A stretch of DNA of 64,000 nucleotides, taken from a candidate division CPR2 bacterium GW2011_GWC2_39_10. Its GTDB lineage: Bacteria; Patescibacteriota; CPR2. The stretch is from the NCBI GenBank assembly GCA_000993275.1, contig LBVV01000009.1, positions 2,897-66,896 on the forward strand, in the 5' to 3' direction. Each line of letters opens with the position of its first letter. The first letter of the stretch is position 1. The notes under the pieces are model-generated. The model was not told the DNA's origin, ran no database searches, and saw nothing but the letters and a program-made list of their open reading frames with translations. Shown here in pieces: positions 22,799-57,148 of this stretch. Both the position numbers and the translations under genes were made by a program.

Positions 22799-23188
22799 AT
22801 GGGCGATCTCTCAGTTGCAATTTTGATATGTTTAATAATAGTTATTCTGATTTATTCCATACCATATCGTATTGTGGGAGATGTAATTGGTTTTATTCCG
22901 CGACATGCGATATCAAACTATCCAGAAATAGCTAAGAAATATTTCGGCTCAGAAATCGCTAATTTAACCTCTATGATAGCCATCTCTGGTGGAATATTTA
23001 GGTATAAAACTAAAATAAAGCAAATTAAAAGTTTTCTAAATGATACAGACTGTTCTCAGGATCCAAGGCTTGTGAAACTTGTCAAAAGGCTTAATATTTT
23101 TTTAGTGATGCGAAAGATCTATTTTGGATTACTAATTATGTTAACTATTTATTTCTTTATTTTTCTTTATCTAACATCGATGAGATAG
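22799..23188 (+). CDS. Hypothetical membrane protein
   Basis: 129 aa, hydrophobic N- and C-terminal segments, RBS aggag upstream. No family recognised. Confidence 0.45.
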   Translation: MGDLSVAILICLIIVILIYSIPYRIVGDVIGFIPRHAISNYPEIAKKYFGSEIANLTSMIAISGGIFRYKTKIKQIKSFLNDTDCSQDPRLVKLVKRLNIFLVMRKIYFGLLIMLTIYFFIFLYLTSMR

Positions 23189-23239
23189 TTGCAAGAAAAG
23201 GCTATTGGGTCTATTTATTATTTTCATAAAAGATTTTAT

Positions 23240-23455
23240 CTTTTGCCACTTTTTGGAAAGTGGCGTAAAACTTTCGGCTGTCTTCGCCAAAGTGTCGGAA
23301 GTAGCACTCATTCTTTCTCAAAAAAATTGCCGCTCCTCCGGATCGCCCTCACGCCCAGCTAAAGCTGGCCTCCGGTAGGAATTTTTTTGAGATAGTCATT
23401 CGTTTCTTCCTCTCTTTGGCTGCGGAGGCCGATTTAGGACTCGTAAAATCGAAGA
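23240..23455 (+). repeat. Family C intergenic element, divergent copy
   Basis: Begins ttgccactttttggaaagtggcg (hairpin as in the other copies). Contains tctcaaaaaaatt ... aatttttttgaga inverted pair. Confidence 0.55.
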
Positions 23456-23467
23456 TTTTTTGGTAAT

Positions 23468-24028
23468 ATGAAGTCAAAAGGAGCATTGGTGAAAATAAAA
23501 GATAATAGTGACTTGTTTAATGAATGTAAAGACGCCTTTAGGTTAGAAACGTTATCCGTTTACTCAATACCTGAAGAGGAAAAATACCTCCAATTATATT
23601 ATGATGGCAAGCCACTACCACCACAAGAATGTTGTATGACTGAATGGCACACAATGTTAACAAAAGCGAAAGAAAGAGGCGCCTCTTTTAAAAGATTGAG
23701 GTCTTTACCGGAAAGTTTTAATAACTACATAAGAGCCGAAATTGAATGGGGCTACATATATAATGCCGAATTCGGTGAAAATATAAGAATGATTACTCCT
23801 AGTTTGATAAAAGAGAAAGTTAGCAAGGAAAAACTTGTAGATTTTTGGATTTTTGATAATGCTTCAGTTTTACTAATGAATTACGATACGGAAGGTCATT
23901 TCCTTGGCAGCAATCTAGTGGATGACTTCAGGGAAGTTGATAAATATATAAAGATAAAAGAGTTGCTATGGCCGCTAGGCCAGAAGCTGGAAGATTTTTT
24001 AAAAGAATATCGCGCTAAAAAGTATTAA
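23468..24028 (+). CDS. Hypothetical protein, possibly DUF6879-like
   Basis: 186 aa. The pattern AFRLETLSVY...W...GASFKRLRSLP...YIRAEIEWGYIYNAEFGENIRM...DFWIFD resembles that family as I remember it. Unverified. Confidence 0.4.
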   Translation: MKSKGALVKIKDNSDLFNECKDAFRLETLSVYSIPEEEKYLQLYYDGKPLPPQECCMTEWHTMLTKAKERGASFKRLRSLPESFNNYIRAEIEWGYIYNAEFGENIRMITPSLIKEKVSKEKLVDFWIFDNASVLLMNYDTEGHFLGSNLVDDFREVDKYIKIKELLWPLGQKLEDFLKEYRAKKY

Positions 24029-24205
24029 AACTCGACAAATTTGTGGTTTTTTTGCTATAATTAAGCCATGAATTTATATTGTGCAATTTTTTTATAAGTT
24101 CTAGATTCCCGATCGGGTCGGGAATGACGAAGGGAAAGCAGATTCCGGCTTTTATCTAAAGAGGGTAGGCACGTAAAGACTTGTTTATTGCTTATTGCTT
24201 TTTGT

Positions 24206-25126
24206 TTATTTTTTAACTAGTGGTAATGTACAGCATCTAAAGCCTGCTCCGGTTTTGGGGGCTTCGTCAAATTTTACCGGAATAATTTTTATGTTCATAT
24301 CAGTTAAAAGTTTAATTAATCTTGTTGCATTGTGCCGCATAATAATTGTGTTCGGGTCAATTACCAAAACGTTGGAAAATAGGGCGTCTTGTTCTTCCCT
24401 CGAGATATCAATTAACGCGTAATTATCTAAAATCTCTTGAGGAATTTCTTTTAAACCATTTTTATAAATCAGGGCCTTGCCAGCGACAATTGGGCCAAAA
24501 GTACAGTCTAGGTGCAGACATTCTTCGTCGTCTTCCGGTAGTTTCATGAATACGGGAATAACTTTATATTTGGTATCCCTTAAAGCATCTTTCAAAAAAT
24601 TTAAGCCTTCTTCAGTTGATCTTTGACCGATTCCACAAAAAACAAAACCTTTGTCCAAAATTATGTCGCCGCTTTCTAAAATTATCCCTTCGGGAATTCG
24701 AATAATTTTATCTTCAGGAATTAAATCCAAAATATCTTTTAAGGCTTCCCATTCCCGTTTACGGCTTATCTTTTTCATGTTGCAGATAAAAAACAAATCG
24801 CCGATAACAAAGGCAATGTCGCGGGGTGGAAGCTGGTCGCATACGCCGGTAGAACAGGGCAATGGAAGCAAGTGCCGAACGTGAACGCCTAAATCCTTCA
24901 AAACCAATTCTAAACCGTCAAATTCCTTTTTTAAACTTTCGGCCGTAGGTTTATCGTCAGAGAAATAATATTTTTTTTGAGTATTATTAACTATTTCCAA
25001 AGTTTTAGGGTCAGAAAGGAAATTATCCGGATAGCCAATTACCACATCCCTTAAAGTGTCCGTTTCATTCAAGCAATGGGGGATTAAGTTTTCTTTTTTA
25101 TTTTTAGTAATTATTTCTTCTTTCAT
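24206..25126 (-). CDS. Amidinotransferase / DDAH / arginine-deiminase-superfamily enzyme
   Basis: 306 aa. CLHLDCTFGPI and C-terminal GAGFRCCTLPL (catalytic Cys context) are typical of guanidino-group-modifying enzymes. Confidence 0.65.
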   Translation of the reverse strand: MKEEIITKNKKENLIPHCLNETDTLRDVVIGYPDNFLSDPKTLEIVNNTQKKYYFSDDKPTAESLKKEFDGLELVLKDLGVHVRHLLPLPCSTGVCDQLPPRDIAFVIGDLFFICNMKKISRKREWEALKDILDLIPEDKIIRIPEGIILESGDIILDKGFVFCGIGQRSTEEGLNFLKDALRDTKYKVIPVFMKLPEDDEECLHLDCTFGPIVAGKALIYKNGLKEIPQEILDNYALIDISREEQDALFSNVLVIDPNTIIMRHNATRLIKLLTDMNIKIIPVKFDEAPKTGAGFRCCTLPLVKK

Positions 25127-25484: not shown

Positions 25485-25811
25485 ATGAAAAAGCGGCGGA
25501 TAAAATTTATCTTAAAAGCAACGGATTTTGTTTTGCTAACATTTATTCTTTTTCCGATGGCTTTTTATATTAATCGAATTTATGGTTGCGATGCTTGTCA
25601 TTTAAATTTCATTCAGAACCTCTTAAAATCTATTGCCCAATACTTAATCAAGGTTCAGGTTTTAGTGTTTGCGCCGGCCTTAGTCGTTTTTTTTATCCCG
25701 TTTTCCATTGTCATGGAATGGGCAAGCGGCAGTCCCAGGGAATGGAAGCTGACTGCATATATCGCTTGCATCATTAGTCTTATGGCTCTAATGTATTTTG
25801 TGTTTACATAA
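25485..25811 (+). CDS. Hypothetical membrane protein
   Basis: 108 aa with three hydrophobic segments. No family recognised. Confidence 0.4.
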   Translation: MKKRRIKFILKATDFVLLTFILFPMAFYINRIYGCDACHLNFIQNLLKSIAQYLIKVQVLVFAPALVVFFIPFSIVMEWASGSPREWKLTAYIACIISLMALMYFVFT

Positions 25812-25869
25812 AATACAATTGGCACTTATGAAGCGACCATGGTAAAATAGTTTTTAGTTAAGGAGGGAT

Positions 25870-26265
25870 ATGGGTTATATCGACAAAATTGCTTCTTCAT
25901 TTGCAAACTACCTGGTTGCGGTTTGGCAGCAGATTAGTTGGATTTTTACTACGGATACAATTAAAATGAAGCCGCTGTTATTTTTGGATATTATTTTAGT
26001 GGCCTTTGTTTTCTATTGGATTTACATTTTTCTTAAAAAAACCACAGCTTCACGATTCCTACCCGGGTTCCTCGCATTTTCTGTTTTTGCCGGCCTTGGT
26101 TATCTTTTTGATTTAAATGCCGTTGCTTGGTTATTTTCTAAAATGTTTTTAGTCATAATTGTGGCAATTCCCATAATATTTCAACCGGAAATTAGGGAAG
26201 CATTAAGTTTGATGTCAAAGAAAAAATCTTTGGTTAACGCTCCGATTAATAAGGAAGATAGATGA
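25870..26265 (+). CDS. CdaA (diadenylate cyclase) N-terminal membrane domain only; DAC domain absent
   Basis: FLDIILVAFVFYWIYIFLKKTTASRFLPG...WLFSKMFLVIIVAIPIIFQPEIREAL parallels the three-TM N-terminus of CdaA up to the FQPELRRALEQLG hinge. The ORF stops 24 aa later. ATGA overlap with the cdaR-like gene. Confidence 0.7.
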   Translation: MGYIDKIASSFANYLVAVWQQISWIFTTDTIKMKPLLFLDIILVAFVFYWIYIFLKKTTASRFLPGFLAFSVFAGLGYLFDLNAVAWLFSKMFLVIIVAIPIIFQPEIREALSLMSKKKSLVNAPINKEDR

Positions 26266-27482
26266 AGTACATAACCAATAATTTTTTTGTTAAATTTTTA
26301 TGTTTGGTGCTTGCCTTTGTTTTTTGGGTTTTTGTGATGGCAGCTGACACCAGAATGGGTTATTTCCCCAAAGAAATCGAGGTAAAAGTTAGAAATATTG
26401 CTAACGGTCTTGCGGTAGTGGAGGATACTGTTCCAATAAAAATTAAAGTAAAAGCTCCCTTAACCGTATATAATAAATTAAATGATAAAAGTTTTGAGGC
26501 TTACGTGGACGCTTCCAGTATAAAAGAAGCCGGGGCCGAAAATTTAGATATTAAAATTGATTCAAAGGAAGCGGGTGTTCAGGTAGTAGGGTCGGACCCT
26601 AAATCCTTCCTATTAAAATTGGAAGATGAAGAAACTAAAAAAATGGCTATAACCCTAAGCCATAAGGGAAAACCGTCTGATGATTATAAAGTTGGAACCG
26701 GGGAAATTTCGACAAAAGACGTTATAGTGACCGGTTCCCCTACAAAATTAAAAAAAATAGCAGATGTTGTGGCGTTGATAGAGTTAAAGGGTAATGAAAA
26801 AGGAAATATTGATGCCGACATGCCGGTAGTCGCTTTAGACGAAGATAACAATACCATTAATTATCTGGTTTTTGATCCGGAAATTGTGGGTGTTAAGATG
26901 GCCATTATTCCAAAGGTGGTGTCTAAATCCGTTGGTATAAAAGTGAACTTAACAGGTGAGGCGGCTAAAGGCTACTGGGTAAGCAAGATAAAAACCGATC
27001 CGGAGATTGTGGCCGTTAAAGGAGAGCTTGAAAAAATAAAAAATATGGAATATGTGGAAACTGAAAAAATTGATTTGGTGGGGAATTCGCAAACTATGAT
27101 TGCTCGTGCTAAGTTTCAGTTGCCGGAAGGTGTAAAAGTGGCAGATAATATAGACAAAGTTAATGTCCAAATTTTTATTTCTAAAATTGATGCTACCAAA
27201 ACCATATCGCCCGCGGTAAACTTTAAAAGGGGAAATCCGAAATATAAAGCGGAGACCTTAAATATGCCGGCCGTTACCTTGTCCGGTTCGCAAGCCGCCC
27301 TAAATGCCGCTACTTCTGAAAATGTTGTTTTGAATATAGATTTGTCAAGTTACGGACCGGGCGAGCAAAAAATTCAAATTAAAAAAGAAATGGTGACAGT
27401 TTCTGGTGAAGTTGAAGTGACTAAAGTTTTACCGGAGTTTATAACAATAAAAATAACGGAGATAGCAACACCAACCCCATGA
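26262..27482 (+). CDS. cdaR: YbbR-domain protein (CdaR-like)
   Basis: 406 aa. N-terminal anchor FFVKFLCLVLAFVFWVFV followed by four repeated ~85-aa YbbR-like modules. Canonical position after cdaA. Confidence 0.75.
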   Translation: MKYITNNFFVKFLCLVLAFVFWVFVMAADTRMGYFPKEIEVKVRNIANGLAVVEDTVPIKIKVKAPLTVYNKLNDKSFEAYVDASSIKEAGAENLDIKIDSKEAGVQVVGSDPKSFLLKLEDEETKKMAITLSHKGKPSDDYKVGTGEISTKDVIVTGSPTKLKKIADVVALIELKGNEKGNIDADMPVVALDEDNNTINYLVFDPEIVGVKMAIIPKVVSKSVGIKVNLTGEAAKGYWVSKIKTDPEIVAVKGELEKIKNMEYVETEKIDLVGNSQTMIARAKFQLPEGVKVADNIDKVNVQIFISKIDATKTISPAVNFKRGNPKYKAETLNMPAVTLSGSQAALNAATSENVVLNIDLSSYGPGEQKIQIKKEMVTVSGEVEVTKVLPEFITIKITEIATPTP

Positions 27483-28501
27483 AATTAGAAGATAGACATA
27501 ATTTAAAACTTATCATTATCCTATTCCTGGCGCTGCTATTGGGTGGTACTATTGGTTTTGTTGCTTTTACGGACGAAGACATACTAACCGCTTTCTACAG
27601 GACTATCATTTTAATGCTGACTCACTTTGACCATGAAATTCCGGAGACTTGGGGAGTAAGGCTTCTTGTCTTGGGTCTAATTTTTGGAAGTCTTATCATT
27701 ATGGCATATTTAATAAAGATATTTGCTCAGTATATTTTTGAAGGAACGCTGAGTGATAATATAAGGAGGCGAAGAATGAAAAAAGAAATAGATGCTATGA
27801 AAGACCATTTTATAGTTTGCGGTTTTGGGCGTGTCGGACAACAGATCGTTCAGGAGCTTATAAATGAAGATGTCAATTTTGTCGTTTTAGATCGTGACGA
27901 AAAAGCATTTCATGATAGAATATCAAAGAAGATTAAATTTTTGCCTAAAGATCCAACATTCGAGGATAATTTGCGTGATGCGGGTATTTACAGGGCCAAG
28001 TCTTTAATTGCGGGTTTGGGTGAAGATACGGATAATTTGCTTCTAACATTGGCGGCCAGATCCCTAAATCCCAACCTTTATATCGTTTCCAGATGTAGTT
28101 TTGAGGAAAATGCGGCAAAATTAGAAAAGGCAGGAGCGGACAGAGTTGCAATGCCGTATCAAATTGGCGGATATCATATGGCCACTATGGCCTTGAGGCC
28201 GGCAGTTGTTGATTTTTTAGATGTCATTATAGACAGCAAGCATCACGAATTGCAAATAGAAGAAGTTTGTGTTGAAGAAGATTCGCCGCTAATTGGCAAG
28301 CCATTAACGGAATATTTATCCAGAAAAAGAACGGGTGCCACAATTTTGGCAATTAACCGTTATGATGGAACATCTGTTATTAATCCGGCGGGAGACGAAA
28401 TAATTTATAGTAAAGACAAACTAATAATTATGGGCACAAAGAAGCAGTTGGAAAATTTGGCCAGTTCAATCTTTAGCGAGGAGAGTATTATTGTTAAGTA
28501 A
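27479..28501 (+). CDS. Two-TM pore + RCK (TrkA-N/TrkA-C) channel-like protein with non-canonical filter
   Basis: 340 aa. M1, pore helix and M2, then Rossmann HFIVCGFGRVGQQIVQEL and a TrkA-C-like end. The TVGYGD position reads LTHFDH. Confidence 0.75.
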   Translation: MKLEDRHNLKLIIILFLALLLGGTIGFVAFTDEDILTAFYRTIILMLTHFDHEIPETWGVRLLVLGLIFGSLIIMAYLIKIFAQYIFEGTLSDNIRRRRMKKEIDAMKDHFIVCGFGRVGQQIVQELINEDVNFVVLDRDEKAFHDRISKKIKFLPKDPTFEDNLRDAGIYRAKSLIAGLGEDTDNLLLTLAARSLNPNLYIVSRCSFEENAAKLEKAGADRVAMPYQIGGYHMATMALRPAVVDFLDVIIDSKHHELQIEEVCVEEDSPLIGKPLTEYLSRKRTGATILAINRYDGTSVINPAGDEIIYSKDKLIIMGTKKQLENLASSIFSEESIIVK

Positions 28502-28844
28502 AGAATTTACAGAAGAGCAAAAAGAGATTTTGAAAAAAAAGCTTAAAGATATCGAGGCAGAACTGGAAGAAAGAGCAGTTAAGTCGCCGGATAATATTTT
28601 TTGGAAGGCAAAATTTGATGATTTTGGCATAGAGGACGACGATGAGGTCTTAGAAGACGAAGTTTTCGATGTCAAAGTTGCCCAAATAAAAAATTTGTTA
28701 GAAGATAAGGCGCAAATTGAGTTAGCGTTGGAAAAGTTTTATAACGGAAGTTACGGTATTTGTGCGAATTGCCGTCAAGAAATTGATGTAGAAAGATTAA
28801 AGGCTTTCCCTGAAGCAACATTTTGTATAAAATGTGATTCATGA
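28491..28844 (+). CDS. DksA/TraR-family C4 zinc-finger protein
   Basis: Coiled-coil N-terminus, then C-terminal CANCRQEI...ATFCIKCDS. Confidence 0.8.
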   Translation: MLSKEFTEEQKEILKKKLKDIEAELEERAVKSPDNIFWKAKFDDFGIEDDDEVLEDEVFDVKVAQIKNLLEDKAQIELALEKFYNGSYGICANCRQEIDVERLKAFPEATFCIKCDS

Positions 28845-37262: not shown

Positions 37263-38201
37263 ATGAGAAAAAAGGTTTTCAAGCTTGTGGTTGGGATTTT
37301 TGCATTAGCGGCAATACTGGCAATGCCCAAACACATTTATGCGGAGGGTGATACGGGGGGAGCGCGTGGAATAACCATAGTCCCTTTAAATTTCGAGTTG
37401 TTTGCTAATCCGGGAGAAAGTATTACCGACAAGGTTAGAGTTACCAACACATCCGATGTCGAAGGTAGTTATCAAATTCTAATCCAAGATTTTGCGGCTA
37501 CGGGCGAAGAAGGCAATGTATCTTTATTTGAGGATGATCAAACTAACCACAGCTTTTCTTTGGCTAAGTGGATTCAGCCGGAGCCCAAAAATTTTACCCT
37601 GAAAGCAAAAGAAGAGAAAACCATATATTTTACTATAAATGTACCCAAAGATGCTGAACCGGGCGGCCACTATGCATCTGTTTTGGTTAATATGGGCGGT
37701 GATGTAAAGCCAAGCGGCGGTGCGTCAGTTGCTTCCAGAATTGGATCTCTCATTCTTCTAAGAGTTTCCGGCAATATCAGAGAAGAAGCTAATATAGAGT
37801 CCTTTACCGCACCGAGTTATTCCGAAAAGAGTCCAATCGAATTTGATTTAAGAGTAAAAAATACCGGCAATAATCACATCAGACCAAAAGGCACCATTGT
37901 TATCACAAATATTTTAGGCCAAAAAGTTACCGAAGTTCCCTTGGACGGTTTAAATGTTTTGCCGAATGCTATTAGAAAAATACCAACCACTTGGAAACCG
38001 AATCAAATGTTGGCAGGACGTTACACGGCAACTCTGGTAGCTAACTATGGTTCATCAAACAAGCAATTAACATCGACAGTATCATTTATAGTTTTTCCTA
38101 AATGGCTTGCATTAGTTGTTGGTACAGGTATTATTTTGCTTGCTGTTGTTATATCAAACAAGAAAGCAGTTAAAAAATTACTGCATAAGTTAACTAAATA
38201 A
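37263..38201 (+). CDS. Surface protein, DUF916/DUF3324-like (CscA-like), C-terminal TM anchor; paralog 1
   Basis: 312 aa. Signal peptide, two beta-sandwich-like halves (ITIVPLNFELFANPGESITDKVRVTN...INVPKDAEPGGHYASVLV; RVKNTGNNHIRPKGTIVITN...LAGRYTATLVANY), then a TM segment plus a KK tail. Alignable to 56191-57129 along its full length. Confidence 0.6.
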   Translation: MRKKVFKLVVGIFALAAILAMPKHIYAEGDTGGARGITIVPLNFELFANPGESITDKVRVTNTSDVEGSYQILIQDFAATGEEGNVSLFEDDQTNHSFSLAKWIQPEPKNFTLKAKEEKTIYFTINVPKDAEPGGHYASVLVNMGGDVKPSGGASVASRIGSLILLRVSGNIREEANIESFTAPSYSEKSPIEFDLRVKNTGNNHIRPKGTIVITNILGQKVTEVPLDGLNVLPNAIRKIPTTWKPNQMLAGRYTATLVANYGSSNKQLTSTVSFIVFPKWLALVVGTGIILLAVVISNKKAVKKLLHKLTK

Positions 38202-38262
38202 TAACTTACTTGAGCTTTTGTTAACAAAGCTCTTAGGGGGTGGCAAGAGTTTGGGTTTGGGT

Positions 38263-39498
38263 ATGAGAAAACTTACAAAGAATATAATAGTTGGTGTCAC
38301 CCTGTTTATTGCCTTCTTTGTCTTTTCGGCTGACAAGGCAAGCGCTGCGGTTCAGGGGCTAAATTTCCCAAGAGATACAATTAACACGGGTAATCCCGAA
38401 GCATACGCCCAGCATTTAATTAAATTCGGACTGCCTTTAGAATCTCTACAGGTAAGTGCCGGCGACTATATTTTAATAGATTTTCCATTTTATTCATCGC
38501 TGACCGAGCCAACTTTTTTGAGTGGTTCTTTTACGGGGAATCCGGTTTTTAGCGTGATTGATAAGAGAATTAGAATTACCGGCATAGAACTGTTGCCGGG
38601 TAAAACGTTGCAAATTAATGGTATTAATGCCTATAATCCGGCCAATAGGGACGAATATGACGTTTATATTCGTATTTCTTCTGATCCGGACGGAATAGTT
38701 ACTAGAAATATGGCCCAGATCATAGCCACGCCGACCGATAATTCGGTCTCAGTTTCAGCCACAATAATGGCCAATGTTGGAACTCTAAAAGTAACAGGCT
38801 ATGCCGCTCCGGGACTTTTTTTGACATTTTCGGAAAACGGTACCATTATCGGCACCACTACCGGCACGCCCACCGGAACATTTTCTCAAATCTTTCCCGG
38901 CATTAATCCGGTTCAGCACACCATTATTATATTTGGTACGGATTCCGTAAATAGAACCACATCTCCCGTGACGATAGAGGCATTCACCAGGGTTAGGGAA
39001 TTGACCATAGTATCCGGCGTATTAATGCCGCCAACCATGTCTATTGATAAAGATCAAATTACTCAAGGGGAGTCCTTAACTATCTCAGGGATGGGCGTAC
39101 CTGGTCACATGATTATTATTTATACTCAACCGGCTCCCGATGAAAGCTATCAGACTGCGCCGGAATTGGATGGGGCTTGGTCTCATACTATTACCGATAC
39201 ATCCAGTTTCGAGATTGGCGTTCATTCGGTTTGGGCGATTGATCAAGATATTTTTGGAGGGCAAAGCTTGTATAGCCGTACTTTGGATTTTAGAGTGACG
39301 CAGGCCTTGCCACCAAACCCCGGTCCTCCTTGCGATATAGAAAAAGGCGATTTATCCTGTGACTTGCTTGTTAATATCGTAGATTTTTCGATTCTTTTAT
39401 ATTATTGGGGCACCAATAACGGTGTTGCCGATATCAATGCTGATGGCAGCGTCAATCTCATCGATTTCTCTGTCATGATGTTCTATTGGCAAGGATAA
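38263..39498 (+). CDS. Secreted protein with C-terminal dockerin-like module
   Basis: ATG 38263 precedes a signal peptide (...FSADKASA). The C-terminus GDLSCDLLVNIVDFSILLYYWGT...ADINADGSVNLIDFSVMMFYW shows the duplicated EF-hand-like dockerin repeat. Confidence 0.65.
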   Translation: MRKLTKNIIVGVTLFIAFFVFSADKASAAVQGLNFPRDTINTGNPEAYAQHLIKFGLPLESLQVSAGDYILIDFPFYSSLTEPTFLSGSFTGNPVFSVIDKRIRITGIELLPGKTLQINGINAYNPANRDEYDVYIRISSDPDGIVTRNMAQIIATPTDNSVSVSATIMANVGTLKVTGYAAPGLFLTFSENGTIIGTTTGTPTGTFSQIFPGINPVQHTIIIFGTDSVNRTTSPVTIEAFTRVRELTIVSGVLMPPTMSIDKDQITQGESLTISGMGVPGHMIIIYTQPAPDESYQTAPELDGAWSHTITDTSSFEIGVHSVWAIDQDIFGGQSLYSRTLDFRVTQALPPNPGPPCDIEKGDLSCDLLVNIVDFSILLYYWGTNNGVADINADGSVNLIDFSVMMFYWQG

Positions 39499-39655
39499 AG
39501 ACCGCTAACGCGGAATATCAAATTAAAAATGTCAAATGTCTAATGAAATTCTAATGATTAAATTCCGAAAATTAAGATTTAAGATTTTGACATTCATTTG
39601 TAATTGACATTTGACATTAAGATCTTCATATCTTCCAAATTTCACAAATTCGTTA

Positions 39656-39771
39656 TGTCATTCCAAACTCGACTACAGAATCTAGGAAGAATGGATTCCT
39701 GGTCAAGCCTGCCTCGCTTTGCTCATCAAGGCGGGCCAGGAATGACAAGTTGGGATTGTGAGCAGTTACAG
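39656..39771. repeat. Family B variants plus gattgtgagcagttacag module
   Basis: tgtcattccaaactcgactacagaatctagg. The reverse-orientation copy ends ...ggccaggaatgacaag. gattgtgagcagttacag (39754-39771) is identical to 22433-22450. Confidence 0.8.
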
Positions 39772-39844
39772 TTATGTCTCTTGACTAAAATCGTTTGCTT
39801 GTGATCTTTAAGTTTGTTAAAATTGATGCTAGAGAGCGCAAAGG

Positions 39845-41758
<1,914 letters not shown>

Positions 41759-45512: not shown

Positions 45513-46905
<1,393 letters not shown>

Positions 46906-46921
<16 letters not shown>

Positions 46922-49076: not shown

Positions 49077-50153
49077 ATGAATAAGAGTTTCTGGGCTTCA
49101 AAAATAGTTGTTGGTTTGTTATTTTTTATAATCTTTTTTAATTGGCCCAATTTAGCGTTTGCGGGCACCTTAACCGGTGTTTCGGTTACTTTAGGATCAG
49201 TTACCCCCAAAACCACCACAACACACACAGCCGGATTTACAACAGCCACAGAAGCAACTTTAAAGCAGGTTACTTTCCAGTGGGAAAAAGATGCCGGTGA
49301 TTCGACTAAGCCTACAAGCTTAAACTTGGTTAATATAACTATCGGATCGGTAAGCGGTTTAAATTCATCAAATTGGACATTAGATACAGCGTCTTATAAT
49401 ACGGGACTTATCAAATATAATAATTCAGATGGCGAAAGCAAGACGGCATCCAGTGCCATAAGCATGGCTTTTGACAACGTATATAATGCGGAAATAGGTG
49501 ATTGCACTGTTTCGGGGAAAATGTTTGATACTTGTCACTTAACTGTCAAAACCTACAGCGACGCCGGAATAACTTTAGTTGATAATGCCACAACGTCTTA
49601 TCAACTGGAAGACGTGCCGTCCTTAACGTACAAGGTAGAAGGTGTGGTACAAGACACTGTTACAAATAATATTACTACCACTATAGATACCGGTTATGAT
49701 GAAATTGCTTTCGGTAAGCTGGGATTAAGAGAGGTGGAGTATGGCGCCCATAAGCTGTATGTAGAAACGACTGCTGCGGATGGATATACGGTTACAATGA
49801 AATTGGATGGGTACATACAAGGGCTAAAAGCGGCCAATAAAATAGATCCGTTTGCGGCCGTAGATTGCACATGGACTACCCCTAAGTCATGGACGACGCC
49901 TACGGGAACCGCAAATAGCACCGATACGGGTTGGATTGGGGCAAATACAAGTGATACCAGAGTAAGTGGCTGGAGTACGGATTCCGGGGGTAAATTTGGT
50001 CCCGTAAGTTCTACGGCTCATGAAGTTATGAAATCGACAGGGAAAGACTATGGAACCTATAAATATGTCACCTATGCGCTAGAGGTTAACGAATATCAGC
50101 CGTACGATTCTTATGCAGGAACTTTAATTTATGAAATTACGCCCACTTACTAA
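49077..50153 (+). CDS. Secreted surface protein, WxL-like C-terminal domain; paralog 2
   Basis: Same architecture as 47537-48685: ...LTYKVEG...IAFGKL...LYVETTAADGYTVTMK...TGWIGANTSDTRVSGW...YDSYAGTLIYEITPTY. Confidence 0.55.
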   Translation: MNKSFWASKIVVGLLFFIIFFNWPNLAFAGTLTGVSVTLGSVTPKTTTTHTAGFTTATEATLKQVTFQWEKDAGDSTKPTSLNLVNITIGSVSGLNSSNWTLDTASYNTGLIKYNNSDGESKTASSAISMAFDNVYNAEIGDCTVSGKMFDTCHLTVKTYSDAGITLVDNATTSYQLEDVPSLTYKVEGVVQDTVTNNITTTIDTGYDEIAFGKLGLREVEYGAHKLYVETTAADGYTVTMKLDGYIQGLKAANKIDPFAAVDCTWTTPKSWTTPTGTANSTDTGWIGANTSDTRVSGWSTDSGGKFGPVSSTAHEVMKSTGKDYGTYKYVTYALEVNEYQPYDSYAGTLIYEITPTY

Positions 50154-51273
50154 TTTAATTATCCTTTTACTTTTATTATTGCCGGTGAAAGTTTTGGGCT
50201 TGCCGGAAGTAGCAGGATTAATGATATCTTCCGTGTCTCCCTTTGCCGGACAAACTAACGTGCCGGTAAAAATTAATGAAGGCGCAAAAATAGTTTTTGC
50301 TAACTCATCTCTAAACATTAATGAAAGCTCTTTAGAAAATAATATAATTATTCTCTCAAGTGACAGCAGCGAAAAAATGTTCGCTAAAAACTTCCAGACA
50401 CATAACAGTCAAGACCCTATAATTGATACAGTTGTTAATTTTTATTTTGGTAGGGCGGGGGATGCTTCAAGTTTAAACTGCCAGTTAAAAAACAATACAA
50501 CCTACACTGTCACCTTAAAAGGCGGCAGTAGCGGCATAAAGGGTATAGCCGATGGGTATAGCCAAATAATGGCTTCGGATTATTCTTGGTCGTTTACGAC
50601 AGGGGACGATACTTTTAGTCCTGATGTTAAAATTTTGTCCGGAAAAAATCAACCCAACGTTAATGCGCTTTTTTCTTTCGAAACAGACGAGCCAACCAAT
50701 TACGAGATAAATTATGGTTATGCGGGCGGCACACAAGCTAAATTTTCATCAAATAATTTTAAAAGCAGACACGATTTTTATATGCCGGTTTTAATGGTTG
50801 GAAAAAACTATAATTTAAAACTAACGGCAAAGGATCGACAAGGAAATACCAAGGAAGTTGATTTTATAATTGAGGTGTTAAATATTTCCAATGTTAGTAT
50901 CAAGATCGGCGAAAAATCGGCTCAAATTACTTGGCAAACTTCGCGGCCCACGGCAACAGCCATCGAATATGGCGTATCAACCAAATATGAAATAAAGAAA
51001 AATATTAATGAATCTAGGACAAGCCACCAATTAGCATTAAATGATCTTTTGCTTGGGCAAAACAAGTATCATTTTCGAATAAAGGCCGAAGAAAAATCCG
51101 GCATCTCATACTCTATTGATTATGATTTTCAAACGTTGGCGAATAATCCGACTTATTATAATGATGAAGGTTTCTGGAGGAATGTGGGCGGCGAAACGGT
51201 GTCTGATGCGGGTACGCTTGAGCTAGTAACGCCCGTTAAAGACGCGGCGCAGGCAATTGGTAAAAGGGCTTAG
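50131..51273 (+). CDS. Secreted Ig-like / FN3-like repeat protein
   Basis: Signal peptide. ISSVSPFAGQTNVPVKIN (SbsA-type Ig-like start). Later SAQITWQTSRPTATAIEYGVSTKYE (FN3-like). The start overlaps the previous gene by 23 nt. Confidence 0.55.
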   Translation: MKLRPLTNLIILLLLLLPVKVLGLPEVAGLMISSVSPFAGQTNVPVKINEGAKIVFANSSLNINESSLENNIIILSSDSSEKMFAKNFQTHNSQDPIIDTVVNFYFGRAGDASSLNCQLKNNTTYTVTLKGGSSGIKGIADGYSQIMASDYSWSFTTGDDTFSPDVKILSGKNQPNVNALFSFETDEPTNYEINYGYAGGTQAKFSSNNFKSRHDFYMPVLMVGKNYNLKLTAKDRQGNTKEVDFIIEVLNISNVSIKIGEKSAQITWQTSRPTATAIEYGVSTKYEIKKNINESRTSHQLALNDLLLGQNKYHFRIKAEEKSGISYSIDYDFQTLANNPTYYNDEGFWRNVGGETVSDAGTLELVTPVKDAAQAIGKRA

Positions 51274-51496
51274 CGATGACAAGAGCCAGCCGGCAGATAG
51301 TTTTGGTGACGTTATTCTATATATGTTACTTATTATTGGGTTAGGTTCCGTAATCTATTTAAAGCAAAAAGAACTTAGCCTCTTAGGGAAGAGGGTTTAT
51401 TCAGGGCTTCTGTCGCCTTTTAAGGCTAACAATAAACTAAATAAAACAATCGATTCAGCGATAGAAGAAGAGATAAAGAAAAAAAGGGGTCAATAG
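51257..51496 (+). CDS. Small single-TM protein, or the detached C-terminal anchor of the preceding gene
   Basis: TTG start. DVILYMLLIIGLGSVIYL TM segment followed by a basic tail. Overlaps the 50131 ORF end in a different frame. Confidence 0.35.
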   Translation: MVKGLSDDKSQPADSFGDVILYMLLIIGLGSVIYLKQKELSLLGKRVYSGLLSPFKANNKLNKTIDSAIEEEIKKKRGQ

Positions 51497-51518
51497 TTTC
51501 TTTCTAGAGAACTTCTCT

Positions 51519-51724
51519 TTCTACTTTTTGGCAGCAAAAAGATAGCAAAAACTGCCGACAAAGCTACAAAATTGGGTTAGGACTGAGTCTTGTTCACTCT
51601 CAAAAAGTCGAACTCGTCGTAACCTCCTCAAACACAACTTTTTGAGATGTTCCCTGCGACATCCGACCTCAGCTTCGCCGAAGGCGAGACGGGAGTCCAC
51701 CACAATTTTTACGCTACAGTCGGA
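51519..51724 (+). repeat. Family C intergenic element, long copy
   Basis: ttctactttttggcagcaaaaagatagcaaaaactgccgacaaagctacaaaattgg...ttcactctcaaaaagtcgaactcgtc, then a ~90-nt insertion, then tttttacgctacagtcgga. Same ends as the copies at 25287 and 31450. Confidence 0.85.
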
Positions 51725-51738
51725 AAAAATGAAATATT

Positions 51739-52923
51739 CTATATCAGACTTCGGAGTTTCTTAAAGAATCCTTTGGCTGATCTAATTTTCATTGTCAATG
51801 ACTCGGTGGTTTTGTTGCCGGCATCATCGTCAATTTCAATATCAACCTTGTATTTGCCAATGGGATACTTATCGAAAGAAAAGTTCTCGGAATCCGTTTC
51901 GTATTTGATGCCGTCAACAGTGACAAAAATTTTATTTACGCCCGAGGTAACATCCTTAACGGTATATCTTAAGTTTACGCCATCTATTGAAGCGTTCAAA
52001 TTTTCGGGAGGAATATTGTCCGTTTTAACGGCAAAGATGGTTTCCGGTCCATTTTTGTCACTTGCTATTGGGATTATATGGAAATACCATTCTCCTTCCT
52101 TAGCATCCAATTCTAAATTTGTCTGATTAGTACTACTTAAATCCGTACAGCTTTTTAATTCTTGATTTAAGCAGTATTTAAAATTTGTTACCCCCGATTC
52201 TCTTAGCCAGCCCAAATTAATTTTCTTAGAATTGTACCAATGGTTAGTGTCCGGATGGGTGGTTGAAAAAATCGTAATTTTTTGAAGTTGTCCGGGTAAT
52301 TTGTTCGACTTTATCTTAGAAACTATATAATCGCCGGACGCCGTTTGTCCTTTTATGGTGGTGGAGAAGTTTTCCTTATTTTTTATAAAAGTATCGCTTT
52401 CAACCAGCTTTATGTTGGCCGTGCCGGGATTATAGTACTTAAAAGTTATGGAAGCAATTTCAAAAGCCGGTGCTTTTGAAACGAAATTATCGGGTGGCAG
52501 GCAAGTGATATTTACAAAGCCGATGTCATTATCAAAATGCCGATTAAAAACAGTTTTGCAAACGGAGGAAGATAAATCTATGGATTCGGCAATTATGATA
52601 TCTTTTGAAAACTGTATTTTTGCCTGAATAGCCGTAACGGTCAAATTGGAGTTGGTTGAAGCTAGTAATTTAACAGTTGATTTTTCGTTCTCATCGATAA
52701 AGCTTCGTCCAACATTAAAAAACATTTTAGGGTTATTCCTTGCAGGATCGCTACTTCCTATTTCTTCCAAATTTTTTTGCTGGGCATCGTATATCTGATT
52801 AAAAACCGGAAAACAAATTAGCGTTAATATAAAGATTGACATAAAAGCCCATAAAATATGAAAAGAAGGTTTTTTCACCTTTGGCGTTAATCTTGTAATA
52901 ATTTTTGTAAGTATTTTTTTCAA
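51739..52923 (-). CDS. Membrane-anchored cohesin-like domain protein
   Basis: N-terminal TM. LTVTAIQAKIQFSKDIIIAESIDLSSSVCKTVF...GFVNITC...EIASITFKYYNPGTANIKL (cohesin-like pattern). Then a STTHPDTNHWYNSKK module and an Ig-like C-terminus. Confidence 0.55.
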   Translation of the reverse strand: MKKILTKIITRLTPKVKKPSFHILWAFMSIFILTLICFPVFNQIYDAQQKNLEEIGSSDPARNNPKMFFNVGRSFIDENEKSTVKLLASTNSNLTVTAIQAKIQFSKDIIIAESIDLSSSVCKTVFNRHFDNDIGFVNITCLPPDNFVSKAPAFEIASITFKYYNPGTANIKLVESDTFIKNKENFSTTIKGQTASGDYIVSKIKSNKLPGQLQKITIFSTTHPDTNHWYNSKKINLGWLRESGVTNFKYCLNQELKSCTDLSSTNQTNLELDAKEGEWYFHIIPIASDKNGPETIFAVKTDNIPPENLNASIDGVNLRYTVKDVTSGVNKIFVTVDGIKYETDSENFSFDKYPIGKYKVDIEIDDDAGNKTTESLTMKIRSAKGFFKKLRSLI

Positions 52924-52924
52924 T

Positions 52925-54133
52925 TTACATCCTTATAAACTTTTCTTTGTAAGCAAAGATTGTAAGTGCCAAAGTGCTTAAGATTGTTAGTATTAGCCAT
53001 GCTTGGACACTCACATAATTATTTCCCAAAAAAGACACCGTTATGATATTACCGGCACTTTTATCGCCTGCGTCTTTTATAGTTGAAGAATATACAGTAT
53101 ATATTTGCCCGCCTTTTGCAATTACCGCTCCTTCATTTTTTGAGGATAAGGGCGTAAAATTTTGAGAGGCGAAAAATCGAAGAATATCTTTTGAGTCGCT
53201 ATAGTACCCATAAATCTTGCCGTCAGTTAAAAACCCGACATTAATATGTGTTTTGTTGTGCAAGCTTTTTGATAGCTTGTCATTAAAAAGGTATCCTCCA
53301 AAGATTGCGCCAATAATTTTGCCATCTTTTATAATGGGAGTGCCGGCAGTATTAGAGAGTAAGCCATCGGAACTTCTTTCAATACTGTTGGCGGGCTTAC
53401 CTTCGAGGATTTCTTTTGCAAAGGGGTTGGAATTTAAAATATTGTCTCCAAAAGATGCGGGTTTATGCGCGCGCACTAAAACATACCCCAACTCATTGGT
53501 TATTGTAAGCGAGGACAAATCGTTTTGTAGCATTTTAGTTTGAGAATAGGTAGATAGCTCAGAAGTTTTGTTTGATGCAATATAAGCACTAATTACAGGG
53601 TCTTCGGCGATGGTTTTTGTCTTTTTTGCCGCCACATCTTTGGCAGCGCTTATTTCGTTATCTATTGTTTGGTTTTGACTTTTGGCCTTTAAAATAGAGT
53701 TTCGTATAAATTTATCATTAAGAGCAGATTCTATAAACGGCAAAATAGCTATAAAAAATATCCCGACAATATAGATATATTTTAAAGTGTCCATGTCTTT
53801 TTTTTCTAAACGTACAGTCAATTTATTTTTTTGTACGATAAAATAAATAATAGCAATTAACGGAAATATCGTCAGCCAAAACCAGCTCACCCTTAGGGTT
53901 AAAAAGAAAAAAACAAATCCTAATAACACGTATGAGCCTCCAATGAAATGCTTCTTCCTGGATTTCTGTTTAAATCCGTCAAAAACAAAAATTGTGGCGA
54001 TGGAAATAGCCGTAAGGAGGAAAAAGCCGGCGAAAATTATAGAGCCAAAACTAACAATTGCCGGCAAAACGGCAAGCGAAAAAATTACTTCAAACGGGTG
54101 GCGAATTAAAAATTGAATAATTTTTTGAACCAT
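52925..54133 (-). CDS. Multi-TM protein with extracytoplasmic Cache/PDC-like domain (tentative), no output domain
   Basis: Four N-terminal TM segments, a ~230-aa external domain (GYVLVRAHKP...PIIKDGKIIGAIFGGYLF...) and a C-terminal TM. The fold call is tentative. Confidence 0.35.
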   Translation of the reverse strand: MVQKIIQFLIRHPFEVIFSLAVLPAIVSFGSIIFAGFFLLTAISIATIFVFDGFKQKSRKKHFIGGSYVLLGFVFFFLTLRVSWFWLTIFPLIAIIYFIVQKNKLTVRLEKKDMDTLKYIYIVGIFFIAILPFIESALNDKFIRNSILKAKSQNQTIDNEISAAKDVAAKKTKTIAEDPVISAYIASNKTSELSTYSQTKMLQNDLSSLTITNELGYVLVRAHKPASFGDNILNSNPFAKEILEGKPANSIERSSDGLLSNTAGTPIIKDGKIIGAIFGGYLFNDKLSKSLHNKTHINVGFLTDGKIYGYYSDSKDILRFFASQNFTPLSSKNEGAVIAKGGQIYTVYSSTIKDAGDKSAGNIITVSFLGNNYVSVQAWLILTILSTLALTIFAYKEKFIRM

Positions 54134-54135
54134 GT

Positions 54136-56079
54136 TTATCTGTTAGAAGAATTATTTGATGAATAATTTTTTGAAATAAACTCTATCGAATTTATCATTT
54201 CCTGAACTCTTTTTTCGTCATCAGAATTTTCGCCCGGTAAGTAGGTGCGATACCATATGCGGTAAATATGCTGGTTGAACTTTGCAATAAAATAGTTTCC
54301 TTTGACGGCCAAATCTTCTTGAAGGACTAATTTGATAGCAGGTACTCCCTTAATAACAACTTTCTCCACACCATATTTAGCAGTCATTTTTGAGGAGGCA
54401 AAGAAGTCATCTAGCGATTTAGCGTATTCAATTCTGTCTATGCTCATCAAATATCCGTCTTGTCTTAAAAACCAAATGTTTTCGCTGCCCATTGGTTTTA
54501 ACCTATGGCTTGTATTTTGAGGGTAAGTTACGGTGATGCCATAATCGGTATCTTTGTATACTTGCCAAATTGTTTTATCAAAGGGTACTTCGGCAAAAGC
54601 TTCTTTGTATCTTTTTTCGGGATCGGTGGCGGCCATGCCGTAGGGGTCTGTTTTATTTGTGCCGCTATTTGTTGTTTGCACACCTTTAACCTGGGCAACG
54701 TACATTTCGGTTGTTTTTTTGGCGTTTCTGACCTGATAAATGAAGCCGGCGGCAAAGATTGCCAAAAGAAAAACAGCTGCCTTAATAAAGGGTATTCCGC
54801 CCGTAGCTTCCACTTTATCAGCTTCAATTTCGTTTGTGGTTACAGCTGCTTTTGTGTCCGCTTTTTTATTTTTTCTGTTTTTTGATTTTTCAAAAATTAA
54901 CGTAAATAGCTTAAGTACCAATTTGAAAGGAAGCATGATCAAAGCAAGAATTTTTTTAACAATTCCTTTTTTGGGTTTATCTTTTTCAGGCGCAGTGTTA
55001 GTTGCAGCCGAGCTTGGTATATCAACCGGATTGACGCCGGCTTGTATGAGTATTTTATTAATGCTTTCGGCGGCGGCCAGGTCTGTAGCGCTTGTATCAG
55101 TATCAGCGGGCTTTACATCATTTGAAATAACCGCCGGCGCAGTATCGGGAGACTTCTCTTTATCCGTTTCTGTTTTTGTGCCAGCTGCCAGATCGATTAT
55201 ATTTGTAGTAGTATCTTTCGATGCCTCTTCTGCCGGTTTTGGCGCATCATCCGAGATTTCAATTGCAGAAGCTTCTTTTTCCAAATTTAGCAGTTCTTGT
55301 TTTATCCGGTCAAAATCACTAAAATCCTCTTCCACAACATCCGCACCCATGTCAACAACATTTACTGGTATTTGCGCTTGTTTTTCCTCGCCTGTAACCG
55401 CTGTTTCTTCTCCGATAGTACTTTTCGTTTCTTCACCTATGGTAGATTCCTTTATGGCAGTTTCTTCATTCTTTTCCGGATTCTTGGTAGGTTCGTTTTG
55501 AACGGAAGAAAATAAGGCTTTTGTCTCCTCGATGCTATCTTTTTTAACTTCTACGCTGCCGGGTGTCGTATCTAAATGCTCTGTATTGTTCTTAATCTTA
55601 CTGTCCTCCAAGACCTTTAAAGATTCCATTATTCTGGTCTGGAATTCTTCGGCTTGTTTGGAAACATTGCTTTTTAAGCTTCCGATAACTGATTTTAAGC
55701 CGTCCATTTCACTTTGGTATGCGGAAATTTTTTCTTTAAGTTCTTGGTTCTCTTTTTGCAGGTTCGATATATTTAGAGCTTCTTTTTCGCTTTCTTCCTT
55801 GGTTTTTATATCTTCTTTCTTTTTTAGGTCCTCGAGGTCTACTTTCATTTTATTTAATTCTTCAAAAGTTTCCTGAGCTTTTTTCAACTTATCCTGAATA
55901 GCCAAAATTTGAGCATCTAAATTGCTAGCTCCTTTTGTGTTTTTGCCCTCGGTAGCTGCACTGGTTGTGCTCGTTTTGTGGTTTCCCTCTTCTATTTTTT
56001 CTTCGGTTTTATGTTCCGGCATATATAATATATTTAACAGTTTGGGCAAGCCTTTGTAAAGACATTTTAATAAATTCAT
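54136..56079 (-). CDS. Large coiled-coil / acidic low-complexity membrane protein
   Basis: 647 aa. Heptad-rich N-terminal third, E/T/A-rich linker, TM (FIKAAVFLLAIFAAGFIY), ~190-aa C-terminal globular part. The true start may be the internal MPEHK. Confidence 0.5.
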   Translation of the reverse strand: MNLLKCLYKGLPKLLNILYMPEHKTEEKIEEGNHKTSTTSAATEGKNTKGASNLDAQILAIQDKLKKAQETFEELNKMKVDLEDLKKKEDIKTKEESEKEALNISNLQKENQELKEKISAYQSEMDGLKSVIGSLKSNVSKQAEEFQTRIMESLKVLEDSKIKNNTEHLDTTPGSVEVKKDSIEETKALFSSVQNEPTKNPEKNEETAIKESTIGEETKSTIGEETAVTGEEKQAQIPVNVVDMGADVVEEDFSDFDRIKQELLNLEKEASAIEISDDAPKPAEEASKDTTTNIIDLAAGTKTETDKEKSPDTAPAVISNDVKPADTDTSATDLAAAESINKILIQAGVNPVDIPSSAATNTAPEKDKPKKGIVKKILALIMLPFKLVLKLFTLIFEKSKNRKNKKADTKAAVTTNEIEADKVEATGGIPFIKAAVFLLAIFAAGFIYQVRNAKKTTEMYVAQVKGVQTTNSGTNKTDPYGMAATDPEKRYKEAFAEVPFDKTIWQVYKDTDYGITVTYPQNTSHRLKPMGSENIWFLRQDGYLMSIDRIEYAKSLDDFFASSKMTAKYGVEKVVIKGVPAIKLVLQEDLAVKGNYFIAKFNQHIYRIWYRTYLPGENSDDEKRVQEMINSIEFISKNYSSNNSSNR

Positions 56080-56108
56080 GAATTAAAATATGTACCCCTT
56101 GAATCTGT

Positions 56109-56137
56109 TTGACTTTAACGTGCTTATGTTGTATATT
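56109..56137 (+). promoter_or_regulatory. Sigma70-type promoter for the second DUF916-like gene
   Basis: ttgact (56109-56114), 17-nt spacer, tatatt (56132-56137). Confidence 0.5.
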
Positions 56138-56190
56138 GCCCTTAGTATTTTTTAATAAATTGATATTCATTTTCTTTAAAGGAGAAAATT

Positions 56191-57129: not shown

Positions 57130-57148
57130 TCTTTAAATAGAGTTTGCA

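Follow-up and report, generated by a model that had tools for sequence, protein, structure and literature searches.

A CdaA membrane domain without its cyclase domain is encoded beside cdaR in a CPR2 bacterium

In a 64,000-nt stretch of DNA from the candidate division CPR2 bacterium GW2011_GWC2_39_10 (contig LBVV01000009.1, positions 2,897 to 66,896 of the forward strand; the whole stretch is called "the window" below), a gene that we term short cdaA encodes a 131-aa protein that corresponds to the N-terminal membrane domain of CdaA and that ends before the diadenylate cyclase (DAC) domain, the part of CdaA responsible for synthesis of cyclic di-AMP (c-di-AMP). Short cdaA is actively maintained, lacks the DAC domain, and is coupled to cdaR throughout CPR2-type loci. 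We propose, with a probability of about 0.6, that in CPR2, a lineage of very small groundwater bacteria, short cdaA is an anciently fixed, functional CdaA that has lost its cyclase and is retained together with CdaR in a non-enzymatic complex at the membrane. A preliminary description of the window, made from the sequence alone, had offered two explanations for the gene: precise loss of the cyclase domain, or a remnant kept as a partner of CdaR. The results indicate that both hold and that the two are not exclusive: the DAC domain is cleanly absent, and the gene is maintained beside cdaR.

Results

The 131-aa protein matches CdaA up to the hinge that precedes the cyclase domain

From its extracellular N-terminus, CdaA runs through three transmembrane (TM) helices, a ~16-aa amphipathic helix, and a ~8-aa linker to the DAC domain; the membrane domain tetramerises via the third TM helix (TMH3), after which comes the conserved amphipathic helix (PMC11686323). 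By eye, the 131-aa product had been aligned with the three-TM N-terminus of CdaA up to the hinge, and profile comparisons confirm this assignment. The product passes the Pfam CdaA_N model (PF19293; 25.6 bits vs. a cutoff of 23.8, E = 1.4e-5), with residues 38-108 corresponding to positions 10-81 of the 81-position profile. With the NCBIfam CdaA equivalog model (TIGR00159) it matches model positions 14-99 of 254 only, at 41.8 bits, below the cutoff of 188.8, and with a custom 270-position hidden Markov model (HMM) built from 31 full-length CdaAs it matches positions 3-110 only, with E = 2.6e-32. A profile of the family of short relatives described below matches one structure in PDB, that of full-length L. 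lactis CdaA (9g69, residues 22-111, E = 1.3e-12), with the hinge IIFQPEIREAL of the 131-aa protein opposite iifqpeirralesLG of 9g69. Kinship to CdaA, for which a profile alignment had been named as the check, is thus supported by both the custom HMM and the match of the short-family profile to 9g69. The protein ends 19 residues past the hinge motif, not 24 as had been counted, at the point where full-length CdaA would continue into the linker to the DAC domain.

The layout of the 131-aa protein agrees with the published plan of CdaA. An AlphaFold2 (AF2) model, which has a predicted local distance difference test (pLDDT) score of only 61 and which was used for helix boundaries only, places helices at residues 3-26, 35-57, 61-79, 83-103, and 106-122, as in the CdaA plan (PMC11686323): an N-terminal helix (residues 3-26) precedes the TM helices, and the TM helices are followed by the amphipathic linker helix that, in full-length CdaA, connects to the DAC domain. 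Residues F104-L112, at the start of the linker helix, are invariant or near-invariant columns across the short family. The remaining residues form a charged tail, with pLDDT < 50 for residues 123-131; the tails of relatives are K/E-rich and variable, extending about 10-55 residues beyond residue 120. Compared with CdaA/DacA (TIGR00159; PF19293 + PF02457; e.g. 9g69), the CPR2 short form shares the N-terminus, the three TM helices, the FQPE[IL]R helix, and a charged C-terminal tail, and it shares with CdaA/DacA loci a cdaR gene directly downstream with overlapping start and stop; in contrast to CdaA/DacA, the entire ~150-aa DAC catalytic domain, with its DGA and RHR motifs, is gone, and the gene lies after rpsI rather than in infB...obg and has no glmM behind cdaR.

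The cyclase domain is absent from the locus

The preliminary description had noted the absence of the DAC domain, and all searches for it were negative. The 131-aa protein has no Pfam match to PF02457 (DAC) and has neither the DGA nor the RHR motif. A search of all six frames of the window and of related loci L001-L019 (about 80 kb) with a 167-position DAC HMM, with filters off, found nothing (best E = 1.3); three full-length loci, used as positive controls, scored 195-213 bits with the same HMM. The stop of short cdaA and the start of cdaR overlap in an ATGA at 26262-26265, read from GATAGATGAAG, and there is therefore no room for DAC remnants. Nor does the truncation depend on the genetic code: a database version of the protein in which TGA is read as Trp (P0001, 134 aa) was considered and found irrelevant, since a TAA follows three codons after the TGA (131 aa with code 11 vs. 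134 aa with code 4). Because the DAC domain is missing, the CPR2 short CdaA cannot be a cyclase, and c-di-AMP synthesis from locus 25870-26265 is predicted, from the sequence, to be absent.

Other components of c-di-AMP signalling were likewise not found in the window. Among the window's non-ribosomal open reading frames (ORFs), Pfam scans detected neither a further cyclase nor a phosphodiesterase of the DHH/DHHA1 or HD type nor a PII-like receptor; an Rfam scan of the window detected four tRNAs only and no c-di-AMP riboswitch; and tblastn searches of the window for infB, obg, gyrA, and KefC returned nothing relevant. The PGM_PMM domain of glmM was not found among the scanned window ORFs, and glmM does not follow cdaR; related full-length CPR (candidate phyla radiation) loci also have no glmM. 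A DAC-domain profile run against a 5.8-billion-protein set gave no CPR2-labelled match among the 120 listed of at least 8000, a result that is uninformative on a CPR2 cyclase elsewhere. Two DAC-only database proteins (P0262 and P0288) were considered as precedents for a split cdaA and set aside: both lie at canonical cdaA positions, with unannotated gaps of ~300-400 nt upstream, and look like start-calling or frameshift artefacts.

Short cdaA defines a conserved family

To account for the short gene, a deletion collapsed during assembly had been suggested. This is effectively excluded by agreement among five assemblies, by a relative with 92% identity, and by orthologues with identities down to 37% and with the same synteny. 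The original Rifle scaffold, three ENA re-assemblies from different runs, and a Logan assembly all carry the 131-aa gene in identical form and between identical neighbours. An exact-sequence look-up assigned the 131-aa protein to GW2011_GWC2_39_10 and GW2011_GWC1_39_9 and found relatives >90% identical to it in Crystal Geyser metagenome-assembled genomes. The proposed comparison of the locus in related genomes shows complete DAC-less relatives, 127-174 aa in length, at the equivalent position, with identities to the 131-aa protein of 92, 65, 61, about 48-49, and 37%.

Database searches separate the short forms from full-length CdaAs. The top matches in an exhaustive HMMER search of 1.84 billion representatives are P0004 (127 aa), P0005 (148 aa), and P0008 (127 aa), followed by full-length CdaAs of 275-300 aa. 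The 5.8-billion-protein set was also searched with a profile: its ten top-ranking clusters (E ≤ 1e-34) comprise proteins of 69-174 aa, none of the ten with DAC (PF02457), and full-length CdaAs appear only from E ~1e-20, leaving a gap below the short forms. Inspection of contigs shows that P0002, P0004, P0005, and P0008 are each encoded by a complete gene that lies within its contig. Short-family members end 24-70 residues past the start of the hinge, in a disordered-looking K/E-rich tail. Many other short CdaA_N matches (e.g. P0017, P0033, P0320, and P0336) were rejected as contig-edge fragments or frameshift translations, with non-charged, out-of-frame-looking tails. When the short-form alignment was run against genome contigs, the matches listed, of at least 600, included only distant full-length cdaA loci (from Chloroflexota and others) and no CPR2 relatives.

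Short cdaA is under strong purifying selection up to the end of the amphipathic helix

Rates of nonsynonymous and synonymous change (dN/dS and pN/pS) were obtained by comparing the window with the 92% relative (L100), a single locus recovered by a single-protein search of metagenome contigs. Residues 1-120 of short cdaA show 15 synonymous changes and 1 nonsynonymous change (pN/pS = 0.02), and residues 121-131 show a pN/pS of about 1.3; dN/dS is 0.04 for cdaR and 0.07 for the downstream RCK gene. In deeper comparisons, pS of short cdaA is saturated at 0.7-0.8, with pN of 0.23-0.45. Identities to the window for short CdaA and CdaR, respectively, are 61 and 54% (L011), about 48 and 47% (L012), and 37 and 38% (L013). 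The amphipathic helix is kept as strictly as the TM helices, which suggests an interaction at the cytoplasmic face.

In the same comparison (25485-26265 of the window vs. 4144-4960 of L100), dS is low in short cdaA (0.24) and in the ORF directly upstream (0.35) relative to cdaR (0.82), the RCK gene (0.63), and rluD (0.78). Recent recombination over this tract, or constraint at the nucleotide level, could account for the low dS of these two genes.

Short cdaA is coupled to cdaR in an old gene order

The preliminary description had also reported an ATGA overlap with an intact 406-aa YbbR-repeat protein. The sequence bears this out, and Pfam finds four YbbR stretches in the 406-aa protein (E = 4.8e-20), which has a hydrophobic N-terminus visible in the sequence. 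The 406-aa protein aligns with 33% identity over 403 aa with the CdaR of L018, which is itself paired with a full-length CdaA. By these likenesses the 406-aa protein is a genuine CdaR: it has the same TM anchor and four YbbR domains as the CdaR/YbbR proteins of Firmicutes and of CPR bacteria with full-length CdaA, and it aligns end to end with the CdaR of L018. It differs from CdaR/YbbR proteins of this kind in that its only CdaA-like partner at the locus has no cyclase and in that its C-terminus stops right after the fourth YbbR domain. A second ATGA overlap, read directly from the sequence, couples the stop of cdaR to the start of the RCK gene, and the ORF list contains three tightly coupled plus-strand genes, encoding 131, 406, and 340 aa.

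The short-form loci share the order secY-infA-rpsM-rpsK-rpsD-rpoA-rplQ-rplM-rpsI-[variable insert]-short cdaA-cdaR-(RCK)-dksA-like-rluD-holB-PSP1, with start/stop overlaps or gaps of ≤9 nt between short cdaA and cdaR in every lineage. The order holds where SecY is 51-70% and RpoA 71-81% identical to the proteins of the window, and the arrangement is therefore old. The interval from rpsI to the module takes up variable insertions: the window has a gene for a DUF6879 protein, a gene for a dimethylarginine dimethylaminohydrolase (DDAH)-like protein, and a 108-aa membrane ORF, and L011 and L012 have a KefC-like antiporter (Na_H_Exchanger + TrkA_N), to which L012 adds a P-type ATPase. More fully, 22799-25126 of the window holds a 129-aa membrane ORF, the DUF6879 protein (23468-24028), and, on the opposite strand, the DDAH/arginine-deiminase-like amidinotransferase (24206-25126).

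The full-length CdaAs closest to the short forms come from other CPR bacteria (Patescibacteria group, Berkelbacteria), where they lie in gyrB-gyrA-infB-cdaA-cdaR-obg and have no RCK neighbour. A neighbour-joining tree built from N-domains groups the five core short forms as one clade (100/100) and places the P0008 group, which has identical synteny, as their sister with weak support (53/100). A single ancient loss of the DAC domain, deep in the CPR2 lineage, would be the most parsimonious account of these relationships. Outside the CPR2 short clade, in an unrelated lineage, P0109 (122 aa; L102, 87-455) is likewise encoded by a complete gene, consists of CdaA_N and a charged tail, has rsmE and not cdaR as its next gene, and probably represents an independent loss of the DAC domain.

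The neighbouring RCK gene encodes an MthK-like protein without a K+ selectivity filter

The gene after cdaR had been described as an RCK-domain channel; the domain assignment stands, and the implied K+ channel function is doubtful. The 340-aa protein carries RCK_N and RCK_C on an MthK-like 2-TM body (Pfam TrkA_N, E = 3.7e-28; TrkA_C, E = 4.6e-12), with Ion_trans_2 at E = 0.12 only, below cutoff. In PDB profile comparisons, MthK residues 23-333 align with residues 12-330 of the protein, and its RCK domains match KtrA/KtrC and KhtT chains. Along its whole length, from the 2-TM pore domain through RCK_N and RCK_C, the protein can be aligned with the RCK-gated K+ channel MthK; it differs from MthK and GsuK in the pore, where a conserved T/S-H-F-[DY]-[HK]-E takes the place of T-x-G-[YF]-G-D. 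Specifically, MLTHFDHEI of the RCK protein stands opposite MTTLGFGDI of GsuK, the T-[VIL]-G-[YF]-G filter is absent, and the replacement motif, L[TS]HF[DY][HK]E, is kept in orthologues (LTHFYKE in L011 and LSHFYHE in L013). Both filter glycines are gone, and the label K+ channel is therefore unsafe; from the sequence, K+ selectivity, and perhaps conduction, is doubtful. The protein has RCK_C in common with the RCK_C c-di-AMP receptors KtrA/KtrC, KhtT, and CpaA, and its c-di-AMP binding would be putative.

An RCK-bearing cation-transport gene adjoins the module in all four assessable short-form lineages, and in none of three distinct nearest full-length loci (L017; L018/L019, counted as one because they carry a single protein in two places; and the context of P0288). 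The preliminary view of the neighbourhood as a c-di-AMP/K+ module without its cyclase therefore survives in part: adjacency of an RCK cation-transport gene recurs in 4/4 lineages, but L[TS]HF replaces the TVGYG filter that the K+ part of the view would call for.

Discussion

A proposed membrane complex of cyclase-less CdaA and CdaR

Our preferred interpretation is that the DAC domain was lost once, deep in CPR2, and that the remaining membrane domain works with the co-translated CdaR in a pair that lies downstream of the rpsM...rpsI cluster rather than in infB-obg, the site in related CPR bacteria. What stays is the extracellular N-terminus, the three TM helices, and the amphipathic helix, followed by a short, disordered, charged tail. 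We infer the partnership with CdaR because the two genes are always adjacent and translationally coupled, because they evolve at equal rates, and because published work shows CdaA to interact with CdaR. CdaA and CdaR have been reported to interact, and CdaR may also act outside its partnership with CdaA (bioRxiv 10.64898/2026.09.06.749708); the interaction is documented in Firmicutes. The most likely role of the pair would be that of an envelope-state sensor or scaffold, with input via the extracytoplasmic YbbR domains of CdaR.

Catalytically dead or domain-deleted signalling enzymes retained as scaffolds are known, for example the degenerate GGDEF domain of GdpP/Pde1. As an analogy, and not as a homology, GdpP/Pde1 resembles the CPR2 short CdaA in being kept under selection without catalytic capacity; the two differ in that the catalytic domain is wholly deleted, not degenerate, in the CPR2 short CdaA, leaving the membrane module.

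Several points weigh against this interpretation. The AF2 model of the 131-aa protein is of low confidence (pLDDT 61). Coverage is 64 kb of the genome, and the absence of DAC holds for the window and the short-form loci. L012 has no downstream RCK gene, and the RCK link is one of gene order in a single clade, possibly the outcome of one evolutionary event. P0109 has no cdaR, and partnership with CdaR is therefore not obligatory for CdaA_N-only proteins.

As to how such a complex might act, we speculate that the CdaA_N tetramer and amphipathic helix would pass a signal within the membrane to a neighbour rather than to a DAC domain. The neighbour would most plausibly be the RCK-gated MthK-like protein encoded next to cdaR, whose presumed tetramer, as in MthK, would match the tetrameric CdaA membrane domain, or, in relatives, the KefC-like RCK antiporter. 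In its full form, this speculation would make CdaA_N and CdaR an autonomous envelope-sensing module in which the CdaA_N tetramer directly controls the MthK-like RCK pore (with its non-K+ filter) or RCK antiporters with no second messenger; we consider the full form improbable. If true, it would amount to a hard-wired, c-di-AMP-free version of an osmoregulatory circuit, and the membrane domain of ordinary CdaA would have a signalling function independent of the cyclase.

Alternative explanations

A regulatory paralogue would be the first alternative: a full-length cdaA-cdaR pair would lie elsewhere in the genome (e.g. in infB...obg), and the short form would be a duplicate that co-assembles with full-length CdaA via TMH3 and either modulates it or titrates CdaR. 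In related CPR genomes cdaA-cdaR lies elsewhere, which would allow the rpsI-linked pair to be an additional copy, and tetramerisation of the CdaA membrane domain via TMH3 would permit mixed oligomers. However, the short form has a complete CdaR of its own that diverges at the same rate, and small CPR genomes rarely retain duplicated membrane modules. We regard a regulatory paralogue as unlikely.

We hold it to be distinctly unlikely that the cyclase is instead split, with a soluble DAC domain encoded elsewhere and complemented in trans, with short CdaA_N and CdaR as its anchor or regulator, and with c-di-AMP still made. All frames of the window and of the related loci searched are free of a DAC domain; no c-di-AMP riboswitch, DHH/DHHA1 phosphodiesterase, or HD phosphodiesterase is present among the scanned window genes; the DAC-only proteins of the databases look like artefacts of start calling or frameshifts; and literature searches found no precedent for a two-gene CdaA. 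In favour of a split cyclase are the usefulness that an anchor would have, because membrane tethering raises CdaA activity >100-fold (PMC11686323), the strict conservation of the helix that normally lies ahead of DAC, and an RCK_C neighbour that, by analogy with KtrA/KtrC/KhtT, could be a c-di-AMP receptor.

The pair could also be a structural or cell-wall membrane complex with no signalling output, the RCK gene being unrelated to it. A role in sensing peptidoglycan status has been proposed for CdaR, and work on pneumococcus suggests functions of CdaR that go beyond CdaA. The operon, moreover, holds unrelated housekeeping genes (dksA-like, rluD, holB, and PSP1), so that gene order need not imply shared function, and the lack of a downstream RCK gene in L012 points the same way. 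On the other side are the contrast between 4/4 short-form lineages and 0/3 nearest full-length loci in adjacency of an RCK-bearing gene, and a cytoplasmic amphipathic helix as conserved as the TM helices, which suggests an interaction at the cytoplasmic face. We consider a purely structural role quite improbable.

Recent truncation, a pseudogene, or assembly collapse, with no retained function, is effectively refuted: the assembly does have at least one apparent frameshift (atpD, split at 45531-46921), but five independent assemblies agree, the short architecture is common to orthologues down to 37% identity, residues 1-120 are under strong purifying selection, and no DAC remnant exists in any frame.

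Implications

The function of YbbR/CdaR has been called unclear in reviews (PMC13508791). CPR2 would offer a natural separation-of-function allele, in which the cyclase is deleted and the CdaA membrane domain and CdaR remain under strong purifying selection. A cyclase-less CdaA kept with CdaR predicts that the CdaA membrane domain and CdaR, as a pair, have an activity independent of the cyclase, a prediction that can be tested experimentally. Should CPR2 turn out to have no DAC domain at all, its case would be one in which a signalling pathway was lost and its sensor hardware put to a new use. Searches of the literature library found no paper linking diadenylate cyclases to CPR/Patescibacteria and none describing a CdaA_N-only protein.

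Annotation of the short forms is contradicted by their domain content. The 131-aa protein has GenBank entries KKQ94631.1 and KKR33776.1, named "TIGR00159 family protein" or hypothetical; the former name is used for the window protein in NCBI and UniRef, other short forms are labelled "diadenylate cyclase", and JGI lists P0300 as "DisA with diadenylate cyclase activity". Censuses of c-di-AMP signalling in CPR bacteria based on such misleading names or on N-terminal matches would wrongly score CPR2 as cyclase-positive.

Features of the locus and of the rest of the window

Table 1. Features in and around the short cdaA-cdaR module (window coordinates).
Feature	Position	Strand	Description
108-aa small membrane ORF	25485..25811	+	CxxC motif; directly upstream of short cdaA; no family match (Pfam, NCBIfam)
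Promoter-like site	25819..25848	+	TTGGCA-18-TAAAAT, with TG before the -10; between upstream ORF and short cdaA; 10/12 matches
Shine-Dalgarno sequence	25860-25867	+	AAGGAGGG; read from sequence, ahead of short cdaA
Short cdaA	25870..26265	+	131-aa CdaA_N-only product; ORF, Pfam, NCBIfam, HMM, and PDB-profile evidence
Three TM helices	25972..26178	+	Residues 35-57, 61-79, and 83-103; AF2 boundaries and CdaA_N match
Amphipathic linker helix	26179..26229	+	FQPEIREALSLMSKKKS; residues 104-120; connects to DAC in full-length CdaA; conserved
Charged tail	26230..26262	+	Residues 121-131; unconstrained (pN/pS ~1.3)
cdaR	26262..27482	+	406 aa; N-terminal TM helix and four YbbR domains; ATGA overlap with short cdaA
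MthK-like 2-TM RCK_N + RCK_C membrane protein	27479..28501	+	340 aa; start overlaps cdaR stop
Pore motif	27617-27637	+	LTHFDHE, residues 47-53 of the RCK protein; in place of the K+ selectivity filter
DksA/TraR-type zinc-finger protein	28491..28844	+	Overlaps end of RCK gene; followed by rluD, holB, and PSP1, tightly packed and syntenic

The promoter-like site ahead of short cdaA is weak, the number of such sites in the region being equal to the chance expectation. The 108-aa upstream ORF is conserved in close relatives, with 86% identity and a dN/dS of 0.22 in comparison with its L100 counterpart and with 43% identity (E = 1e-24) to a 115-aa ORF upstream of P0002 in L001, and is therefore a real gene; as a neighbour of short cdaA it is kept only among the closest relatives.

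Two further observations concern more distant parts of the window. The gene atpD, for the ATP synthase beta subunit, is present as two overlapping ORFs in different frames, 45531..46574 (ATP-synt_ab 1-121) and 46355..46921 (ATP-synt_ab 141-213 and the C-terminal domain), and it may be a pseudogene, may be subject to programmed frameshifting, or may owe the split to a frameshift error. A run of genes for large secreted or surface proteins lies at 37263-41405 and 49077-58740, with WxL-interacting peptidoglycan-binding, Big_1, fn3, dockerin, cohesin, and BACON domains, together with a dCache_3 protein; judged by domain content, this run is a cell-surface/adhesion cluster, as expected in a bacterium attached to other cells.

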